From NCBI GenBank assembly GCA_965248195.1, contig CBDFIQ010000002.1, forward strand, positions 2,528,001 to 2,592,000: a stretch of DNA of 64,000 nt, in the 5' to 3' direction. The translations under genes were made by a program, and so were the position numbers. This stretch comes from Longimicrobiales bacterium (GTDB lineage Bacteria > Gemmatimonadota > Gemmatimonadetes > Longimicrobiales > Gaopeijiaceae). How positions within the stretch are numbered: position 1 is the stretch's first letter; the number at the start of each line of letters is the position of its first letter. Positions 27,643-28,082 of the stretch are shown piece after piece. The notes beneath the pieces were generated by a model. The model was given only the letters and a program-made list of their open reading frames with translations. It made no database searches and was not told the DNA's origin.

Positions 27643-27933
27643 GGGAACATCTCCTCCCGCTTTGATTTTGGGTCCTGGGAGAGGCTTCTCAATTGTAGCA
27701 TAGTGGCCCAACATTCTCCAGATGGAGCTTGGCGCGGGGGCGGGGGCGTCCAATCCATCCCATTCAGCCATTCCCGCTTCCTACCCTTGGCTCCATCGTT
27801 CGTTCGTTTCCGTTTTCTCGTTGAGGATTAGGAAAGCCTAACAATCTCCGCAACCCGACCTTTCAAACTGCTTGAAAACAAGTCCATTTCTGTGTACGTT
27901 TTTCTCGTGGGATTTGCGTTAATGCAAAAACCC

Positions 27934-28018
27934 CACAGCGGTGGACCACCTGGGAGTCGAACCCAGCAGTATGGCTTGATTAGGGGCGCGGCCGGCAAAC
28001 CTGCGTGGCCCCACTGTG
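27934..28018 (-). ncRNA. tRNA-like structured RNA (not a canonical tRNA)
   Basis: Minus strand: acceptor-like stem GGGCCAC/GTGGTCC plus A; T-arm CTGGG-TTCGACT-CCCAG; outer stem CACAGTG/CGCTGTG; followed by GGGTTTTT. Confidence 0.65.
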
Positions 28019-28082
28019 ATGACGGAGCCCCCGTACCGTGCCTGCCAGCGTGGTGCGGGGGCGAAGTCGTTCTTAGTTCATG

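Follow-up and report, generated by a model that had tools for sequence, protein, structure and literature searches.

A 70-nucleotide tRNA-like RNA gene with alanine identity elements and no decoding arm in a mobile segment of a Longimicrobiales genome: a candidate trans-acting tRNA mimic

A stretch of 64,000 nucleotides from the genome of a Longimicrobiales bacterium (GenBank assembly GCA_965248195.1, contig CBDFIQ010000002.1, positions 2,528,001 to 2,592,000; hereafter the window, with coordinates counted from its first nucleotide) carries on its minus strand, at 27942-28011, a small element that looks like the acceptor/T half of an alanine tRNA. Sequence comparison shows that this element is a conserved structured RNA gene, which combines the alanine identity set with the lack of any decoding arm, and its reality is established by conservation across unrelated genomes with covariation in its stems. 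A broader reading, which has about an even chance of being correct, is that the gene is functional and specifies an anticodon-less tRNA-like RNA of ~70 nt from a widespread family of phages and mobile elements, and that this RNA would act in trans as a mimic or decoy of the acceptor/T half. Together with its relatives, the element shows that small anticodon-less tRNA mimics, mostly of alanine type, are common on phages and mobile elements and reach bacterial chromosomes, where they escape the standard annotators (ARAGORN, and Rfam 15 at gathering scores).

The element and its family

The element and its immediate flanks are made up as follows:

27942-28011, minus strand: tRNA-like RNA gene of 70 nt, from G1 to discriminator A73, recognized by sequence, fold and family models; a member of the GCAGGTTTGCC family
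28005-28011, minus strand: 5' acceptor strand GGGCCAC, all seven bases of which pair with 27943-27949 (G.U at pair 3)
27994-28004, minus strand: connector GCAGGTTTGCC, 11 nt, invariant in the family and standing in the place of the D arm
27967-27993, minus strand: central variable region, whose hairpin takes the position of the anticodon arm and is weakly paired in the window copy
27950-27966, minus strand: T arm with 5-bp stem and 7-nt loop (CTGGG / TTCGACT / CCCAG)
27943-27949, minus strand: 3' acceptor strand GTGGTCC, followed by the discriminator A at 27942
27926-27941, minus strand: 3' trailer, terminator-like, consisting of CCG (27941-27939), a segment pairing with the leader, GGGG and TTTTT (27930-27926)
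28012-28018, minus strand: 5' leader, which pairs with trailer positions 27934-27940
28027-28062, minus strand: upstream GC-rich hairpin of the predicted fold, with a 7-bp outer stem and without a T run

The T arm abuts the 3' acceptor strand directly, only 27 nt separate the connector from the T arm, and there is no D arm, anticodon arm or variable loop. The element possesses the tmRNA-type alanine identity set, G3.U70 and A73, together with a canonical T arm (tmRNA, transfer-messenger RNA). A first-pass annotation of this DNA had noted an acceptor-type stem of 7 bp whose third pair is G.U, a discriminator A, a perfect T arm, CCG instead of CCA after the discriminator, and pairing of the flanks beyond the acceptor stem; the minus-strand sequence and its fold bear out all of these features. 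The site scan of the window also places a terminator-like site at 27945-27932 of the minus strand, with a T-rich tail behind it.

Two further features of that annotation stand in part. The central stem GGTTTG/CAAGCC does appear in minimum-free-energy folds but uses part of the 11-mer that is invariant in the family, whereas the hairpin supported by the family alignment pairs the bases just after the 11-mer with those just before the T arm. In the window copy, 3 of the 5 modelled pairs of this hairpin are kept, whereas the two inner pairs are non-standard (alignment to model R2, described below). The long upstream hairpin, proposed for 28018-28071, is reproduced by the fold with a narrower core, 28062-28027. 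It is not a trait of the family: in 6 of 17 member loci, a same-strand open reading frame (ORF) ends 4-15 nt before the element, too close for such a hairpin to fit in between. A BLAST search of the 150-nt region against 60 relatives returned nothing apart from a 33-nt stretch in one genome of the same order (G042, contig C174, ~11205-11237), which matches the 5' half of the upstream hairpin at 88% (E 7e-5) and may be a chance similarity of GC-rich sequence. In phages, the matches to this region were confined to the T arm, and plasmids gave none.

Shape as such provides little. In a genome-wide scan (4.86 Mb) for a 7/7 paired acceptor stem, a 5/5 paired T stem and a TTCRANY loop, 37 matches were obtained, 35 of them within ARAGORN tRNA calls; the window element is one of the two outside, and the reversed genome yielded four matches in the same scan. 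Fold z-scores are weak (-0.68 for 73 nt and -1.57 for 150 nt). The shape of the window element alone lies within chance expectation, so that the case for the element rests on comparison with other sequences.

Such comparison revealed relatives in several scans. A first viral scan, using the T loop and the 3' acceptor strand, recovered ordinary phage tRNAs together with short alanine-type tRNA-like genes. A scan of species-representative prokaryotes with the pattern G..GGTTT after GGGCC, which fixes only 6 of the 11 connector positions, returned 38 loci, namely 23 ordinary tRNAs and 15 others; among the latter, a fully paired acceptor stem (7/7) and T stem (5/5) occur only in two metagenome-assembled genomes, one from Vicinamibacteria (L123) and one from Planctomycetota (L130). 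Both carry the exact GCAGGTTTGCC, G3.U70 and A73, whereas their acceptor and T stems differ from those of the window element by compensatory changes. These two loci are the only unbiased evidence for conservation of the 11-mer; elsewhere its invariance is largely built in, the 11-mer having served as the search key, and the window element matches it by construction, as the members were found with it.

A search with GCAGGTTTGCC and the T loop found 97 loci in viral sequences and no fewer than 119 in metagenomes (216 rows, 99 distinct sequences). With the register held constant, 21 of the 53 distinct 5' strands can form 6 or more of 7 pairs with the seven bases after the T stem, compared with 2 of 53 in a control register; the other 5' strands are register variants, such as the 6-bp acceptors of marine and gut phage groups, or chance matches. 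The resulting family layout, to which the window element conforms, is a 7-bp acceptor stem, the connector GCAGGTTTGCC, one variable hairpin and a T arm without variable loop; the tRNA-like domain (TLD) of tmRNA is laid out in the same way. A short version of the motif, in which 21 nt lie between the 11-mer and the T loop and a 6-bp acceptor lacks the G.U pair, is found in Mu-like transposable gut phages (L153, L200 and ~100 further gut-metagenome and viral loci). None of the 216 rows overlaps a tRNA or tmRNA call by ARAGORN, and in 14 member loci searched at Rfam gathering scores no family covers the elements. A literature search, outside which most subscription papers lay, found no published description of the GCAGGTTTGCC family. 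An anticodon or a mini-tag in the central loop was considered and rejected, since inspection of the family alignment by eye revealed no constant 7-nt loop, triplet, or stop or resume codon.

Covariation, which the first-pass annotation had named as a check, is strong in the acceptor and T stems. It was assessed in an alignment of 20 members of the ~70-nt class (A1), with a structure consisting of the acceptor stem, a five-pair central hairpin and the T stem. Only sequences with 6/7 or more acceptor pairs and 4/5 or more T pairs had been admitted beforehand (33 distinct sequences passed). This inflates the percentage paired, 90.6% of cells as against 65.1% in shuffles and 36-55% in slid controls, but leaves the variety of pair types unaffected. 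Covariation scored 0.655, compared with 0.183 after shuffling, and the observed value was reached in none of 500 shuffles. Pairing amounts to 97.1% in the acceptor stem, where 6 of 7 pairs change on both sides, and to 98% in the T stem, where 3 of 5 pairs do so. Within the central hairpin, the two outer pairs (columns 18-19/49-50) are 92.5% paired and the three inner ones (columns 20-22/42-44) 61.7%. A leave-one-out model built from the 19 other members (R2) recognizes the window element with 63.6 bits (E 9.2e-14) as its sole match in the 64-kb window. With the sister model R1, the element scores 68.5 bits (E 2.9e-13) in its own genome, where anything else remains at or below 25.3 bits.

The element also differs from the scar of an integration event. 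It is single-copy in its own genome, which contains one tmRNA gene (355 nt, tag ANNELALAA) and three ordinary tRNA-Ala genes, none of which encodes CCA, and the 3' half of the element differs from the 3' ends of all of these. Because it is single-copy and unlike these ends, the element is not an attachment-site (att) scar, and the earlier preference for a tRNA-like non-coding RNA gene over an att-site fragment is upheld. The argument on which that preference had rested, that both acceptor strands are present and paired, is strengthened by the compensatory changes in members from other phyla and from phages.

Relation to tmRNA, tRNA-Ala and mascRNA

As the first-pass annotation had expected, ARAGORN calls no tRNA or tmRNA gene and no tag in the window. 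The element matches no Rfam 15 family at gathering scores. The Rfam tRNA model (RF00005) gave no match on the element at E up to 10, nor did the tmRNA model (RF00023) at E up to 10 in a search of 801 nt (27600-28400). A permissive search with all 4227 Rfam families yielded a single match, to mascRNA-menRNA (RF01684; 21.2 bits, E 0.12, gathering score 42.5).

Message-less tmRNA heads were previously a curiosity. An excerpt of Hudson, Lau and Williams 2014 lists the ssrA of mycobacteriophage DS6A as "TLD only" and states, citing Mao et al. 2009, that a molecule similar to it strongly inhibits tmRNA, perhaps by titrating SmpB (PMC4131195); tmRNAs without a coding sequence (CDS) are also recorded for mitochondria and two plastids in an excerpt of the 2025 update (PMC11915505). 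The DS6A TLD is located at 28478-28560 of JN698994 and scores 43.2 bits with the Rfam tmRNA model; the same phage genome contains a gene for an RtcB-like RNA ligase at 49300-50502. A second viral example (L052, identical to L098) reaches 50.3 bits with that model (gathering score 47) while skipping 304 nt in the middle of it, and carries AGGTTT after its acceptor strand, in common with the window element.

A less biased viral scan, with AGGTTT, the T loop and TCCA, revealed at least 120 loci (L376-L495; 98 distinct sequences). The dominant well-formed class among them is a canonical TLD-only mini-tmRNA, of which 31 distinct examples of 60-86 nt were collected (for instance L383:48-125, L396:1501-1578 and L456:301-379); such minis are common in IMG/VR. 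In these canonical minis, GGTTT is followed by CGAC, the T stem is preceded by GGAC and the hairpin cap is strongly conserved. There is covariation in the stems, with 94.3% of cells paired and none of 500 shuffles reaching the observed value. ARAGORN calls none of those collected a tmRNA. A model built from 20 canonical minis (R3) gives DS6A 59.7 bits. Conversely, R1 scores the canonical minis at 28.9-35.7 bits, with other matches in those loci at or below 23.3 bits, and connectors intermediate between the canonical and window types occur (e.g. in L482, L431, L398, L481 and L472).

The DS6A type and the window element have much in common: both are small (70-83 nt), reside on a phage or mobile element, and combine G3.U70, A73 and a canonical T arm with the lack of a D stem, an anticodon loop and a tag reading frame; both have GG in the connector. 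A single hairpin joined to the T arm without a variable loop is seen in DS6A and, at the level of the family, in the window type, the copy in the window keeping 3 of the 5 modelled hairpin pairs. What sets DS6A and the 31 canonical minis apart is that they keep CGAC after GG(T)TT, have (G)GAC or GCAC preceding the T stem, and retain the hairpin cap. The window element lacks these tmRNA hallmarks: CGAC is replaced by GCC, GGAC is absent and the loop is different. GCC is likewise present, and GGAC missing, throughout the 20 rows of A1; the tmRNA motifs occur in the 20 canonical minis and DS6A. DS6A and the canonical minis furthermore score 43-60 bits with tmRNA-type models, in contrast to the missing Rfam tmRNA match of the window element. 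Model R3 gives the window element 30.0 bits, and the host tRNA-Ala genes 37.2, 31.9 and 26.0 bits; because a true tRNA-Ala scores as well, the score of the window element reflects the shared acceptor/T half and no specific kinship with tmRNA, and R3 was rejected as a test of tmRNA kinship, since it does not separate the window class from true tRNA-Ala.

Like the TLD of full-length tmRNA (RF00023), the element has alanine identity elements, a T arm and, standing in for the D loop, a single-stranded stretch with GG, but it lacks the pseudoknots, the resume codon and the tag ORF, and measures 70 nt as against 355 nt for the host tmRNA. The mitochondrial CDS-less tmRNA (RF02544, as named in the excerpt of PMC11915505) is likewise a message-less head of similar size, but it has no match to the window element in the all-family Rfam search. 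On the sequence comparisons above, the window element is not assignable to tmRNA; it is best described as a variant among those tRNA mimics of phages and mobile elements that lack an anticodon and resemble the TLD, a loosely defined and barely studied kind.

An ordinary tRNA-Ala has the same 7-bp acceptor with G3.U70, the same A73 and T arm, and a similar length of ~70 nt, and the host tRNA genes, like the element, do not encode a full CCA. The element differs in the lack of a D stem-loop, a 7-nt anticodon loop and a variable loop, and family model R1 gives tRNA-Ala 22.8 bits as compared with 68.5 for the element. The mascRNA and MEN-beta RNAs (RF01684) have in common with it a tRNA-like fold, an acceptor and T arm and a position at the 3' end of a longer transcript, and theirs is the only Rfam model that aligns with the element end to end; however, this family is eukaryotic, and the score, about half the gathering value, signifies a likeness of shape only.

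A different alanine-type tRNA-like element, unannotated and ~90 nt long, was noted at ~536-625 of Microbacterium phage Armstrong (NC_048090; L099). It has G3.U70, A73 and a T arm identical to that of the window element, and heads a small tRNA array just upstream of tRNA-Asn; the element also occurs in 7 sister phage records.

Proposed function and alternatives

The function proposed for the element draws on the genes that precede it in the window:

28908-28943, minus strand: promoter-like site (10/12 matches in the site scan), just upstream of the toxin gene
28555-28902, minus strand: gene for a RelE-family toxin of 115 aa (PF06296 RelE, 52.7 bits, E 6.2e-14)
28205-28558, minus strand: gene for a helix-turn-helix (HTH) antitoxin of 117 aa, XRE/MqsA-like (Pfam HTH_3 23.5, HTH_31 24.4 and MqsA_antitoxin 24.9 bits)

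The toxin and antitoxin genes overlap by 4 nt, 193 nt separate the antitoxin gene from the element, which follows downstream on the same strand, and the order on the minus strand is promoter-like site, RelE toxin, HTH antitoxin, upstream hairpin, element, T run. A palindrome with 13-bp arms (28914-28943, minus strand) overlaps the -35 hexamer of the promoter-like site and is likely the operator for autoregulation of the operon. Because the site scan lists nothing promoter-like on the minus strand from 28205 down to 28011, co-transcription of the element with the toxin-antitoxin operon is the simplest reading of this arrangement. The association with a RelE operon was seen at the window locus only. 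The pieces listed from the contigs of four other runs cover 28123-28700, that is the toxin-antitoxin genes, and none extends over the hairpin or the element; in X7, depth is low at 27938-28005. This hints that relatives of the RelE/HTH module lack the element, although the uncovered part itself proves nothing.

Processing of the RNA by RNase P, CCA addition and alanylation are suggested by the identity elements and by the members that lie in same-strand tRNA arrays. A tRNA or tmRNA gene occurs within 600 nt in 17 of the 216 family rows, on the same strand every time. In one locus (L184, minus strand), the element at 97-164 abuts a tRNA at 24-96 without any spacer, so that RNase P cleavage of the downstream tRNA would create the 3' end of the element. 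In another (L190, minus strand), a permuted two-piece tmRNA gene (3177-3611) with the tag ANDANFSVRLAA is followed, ~120 nt downstream, by a deviant copy of the motif at ~3001-3055. These placements beside tRNA and tmRNA genes fit an RNA that is released by tRNA-processing enzymes.

The favoured reading, a mimic or decoy acting in trans, could operate in the window in the following manner: The element would be transcribed as the 3' end of the RelE/HTH operon, with transcription stopping at its own T run. RNase P would then cut at G28011, followed by 3' trimming and completion of the CCA end, and alanyl-tRNA synthetase may charge the RNA with alanine. An action in trans is proposed because the RNA cannot decode; it may engage SmpB, EF-Tu or the stalled ribosome as a mimic or decoy, and the outcome would be either damped rescue by tmRNA, as reported for a TLD-only molecule, or rescue without a tag. 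Mimicry directed at SmpB, EF-Tu or the stalled ribosome would be the most likely, if weakly supported, mode of action. Toxins of the RelE type create non-stop ribosomes, which tmRNA rescues, and the position behind a RelE operon is suggestive for this reason. If such RNAs are indeed charged and engage SmpB, EF-Tu or stalled ribosomes, mobile elements may tune or sabotage ribosome rescue on a wide scale.

A bolder version, which is quite unlikely in its full form, holds that the RelE operon captured a mimic of the tmRNA head as its last cistron. De-repression would then co-produce the toxin, which cuts mRNA in the A site and leaves non-stop ribosomes, and an alanine-charged, message-less decoy occupying SmpB or the stalled ribosome; the escape route through tmRNA would be blocked or replaced by tag-less rescue, deepening the arrest in addiction or abortive infection, and the GCAGGTTTGCC family as a whole would be a tool of mobile elements against ribosome rescue.

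Several observations weigh against the trans-acting reading, beyond the absent tmRNA hallmarks, the lacking RF00023 match and the R3 scores reported above. Members have no conserved protein neighbour by Pfam, all-against-all BLASTP or PHROGs; in the BLASTP comparison, only the neighbours in L165 and L208 are alike. Among the 14 member loci searched against Rfam, L208 alone matches tmRNA permissively, with 29.3 bits below the threshold of 47. The alanine identity set is present in the window copy and most of its closest relatives, but G.U at 3:70 is not constant, being found in 15 of the 20 rows of A1 and in only 8 of 21 well-paired distinct acceptor types of the wider set. At E up to 1e-5, family model R1 detected no member in a further 150 genomes of the phylum; the window element is thus sporadic in its phylum and could be a passenger. 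Its weak central hairpin, moreover, means that it could be a decaying copy, and both the preselected rows of A1 and the use of the 11-mer as search key count on the same side.

The main rival, less probable but still a serious possibility, is a module that acts in cis in processing and end protection. The element would be a landing pad for RNase P and the tRNA 3' enzymes, in the manner of mascRNA at MALAT1, which defines or protects the 3' end of the upstream transcript and aids termination, while the released RNA has no task of its own. This is what the position of the window element would suggest, as the last unit of a toxin-antitoxin operon with pairing flanks and a T run behind it, and the mascRNA-menRNA model is the only one in Rfam that touches the element, albeit below threshold. 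In the 6 of 17 loci mentioned above, which represent four independent element types, a same-strand ORF likewise ends closely before the element, although the ORFs in the member loci are longest-ORF picks and not gene calls. The lack of a conserved protein partner also accords with a cis role, as does the leader position in gut Mu-like phages, where the motif sits between the CI-like repressor gene and the early operon (phrog_16858 and a MuA-like transposase). On the other hand, the closest relatives keep G3.U70, A73 and the invariant 11-nt connector across phyla, although RNase P requires none of the three, and some members lie inside tRNA arrays, where there is no mRNA end to define. If the elements are mere processing signals, they would be a bacterial and phage counterpart of the mascRNA principle.

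It is unlikely that the RNA serves as a decoy or substrate outside trans-translation, either as a sponge for toxins, defence nucleases or transferases that attack the acceptor ends of tRNAs or as an alanine carrier for non-ribosomal transfer. Toxins and transferases attacking tRNA acceptor ends exist, and an alanine identity set without a decoding arm would suit such a role, all the more on phages and mobile elements, which meet tRNA-directed defences; the window element also lies beside a toxin-antitoxin pair. However, no tRNA-modifying toxin, aminoacyl-transferase or recurrent enzyme is found beside the members, and the toxins of the RelE family target mRNA in the ribosome, not tRNA.

It is very unlikely, finally, that the element has no present function and is the relic of a tRNA-Ala or tmRNA gene or of an integration site, or a fold that arose by chance, as might be suspected from the chance-level shape counts, the weak fold z-scores and central hairpin, the location in a prophage-remnant segment bounded by insertion sequences (ISs) and the lack of a copy in the 60 relatives (BLAST) or the 150 genomes of the phylum (R1), since the element is single-copy, is unlike the host tRNA-Ala and tmRNA ends and has both acceptor strands, its architecture, 11-mer and compensatory stem changes recur in unrelated phyla and phages, and the leave-one-out model recovers it at E 9e-14.

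The mobile segment and the neighbours of other members

The wider surroundings of the element are bracketed by two copies of one IS:

19786-21163, plus strand: IS of the IS256/Mutator family, left copy, 1378 bp (Pfam Transposase_mut, 335.3 bits)
33365-34742, plus strand: IS of the IS256/Mutator family, right copy, 1378 bp, identical to the left copy

The two identical copies lie in direct orientation and enclose a 12.2-kb segment that holds the element and resembles a composite transposon. Besides the toxin-antitoxin operon, this segment contains genes for a holin and a GH108 lysozyme (21754-23095), orphan ORFs, a DUF6338 gene and an ankyrin-repeat gene, and the GC content falls to 0.57-0.60 at 24-30 kb from 0.62-0.65 on either side. 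The segment appears to be a mobile island, a prophage remnant bounded by ISs. A gene of a second toxin family, Gp49/HigB-like, is located in the same segment (32630-32989, minus strand; PF05973, 70.3 bits). PADLOC gave only weak HTH matches on the genes of the window.

Members of the family elsewhere also have neighbours of mobile-element type, namely IS1595 transposases, DUF3987 proteins and a holin, and in the gut-phage group a Mu-like transposase and a CI-like repressor. In one further locus (L270), a Proteo-phage-1 RNA (RF03044, 74.8 bits) was noted at 3182-3260 of the minus strand, ~130 nt from a copy of the 11-mer motif; the site is a phage lysis region with an adjacent holin gene.

Downstream of the element follow, on the same strand, a doubtful ORF of 132 aa and then a gene for a 600-aa S1-domain protein (25536-27338, minus strand). 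This protein has a hydrophobic N-terminus, a unique N-terminal half of 350 aa and three RNA-binding repeats like those of ribosomal protein S1. It is nearly an orphan: a single close homologue (P0004, 62% identity) was found among 5.8 billion proteins, the viral scan gave no match, and in 400 genomes of the order only the ribosomal-S1-like repeats match. For the N-terminal half, 400 genomes of the phylum contain one distant match (G426, 23% identity), beside which no element was found. A third Mutator-family transposase, unrelated to the two flanking copies, is encoded at 62403-63584 of the window.

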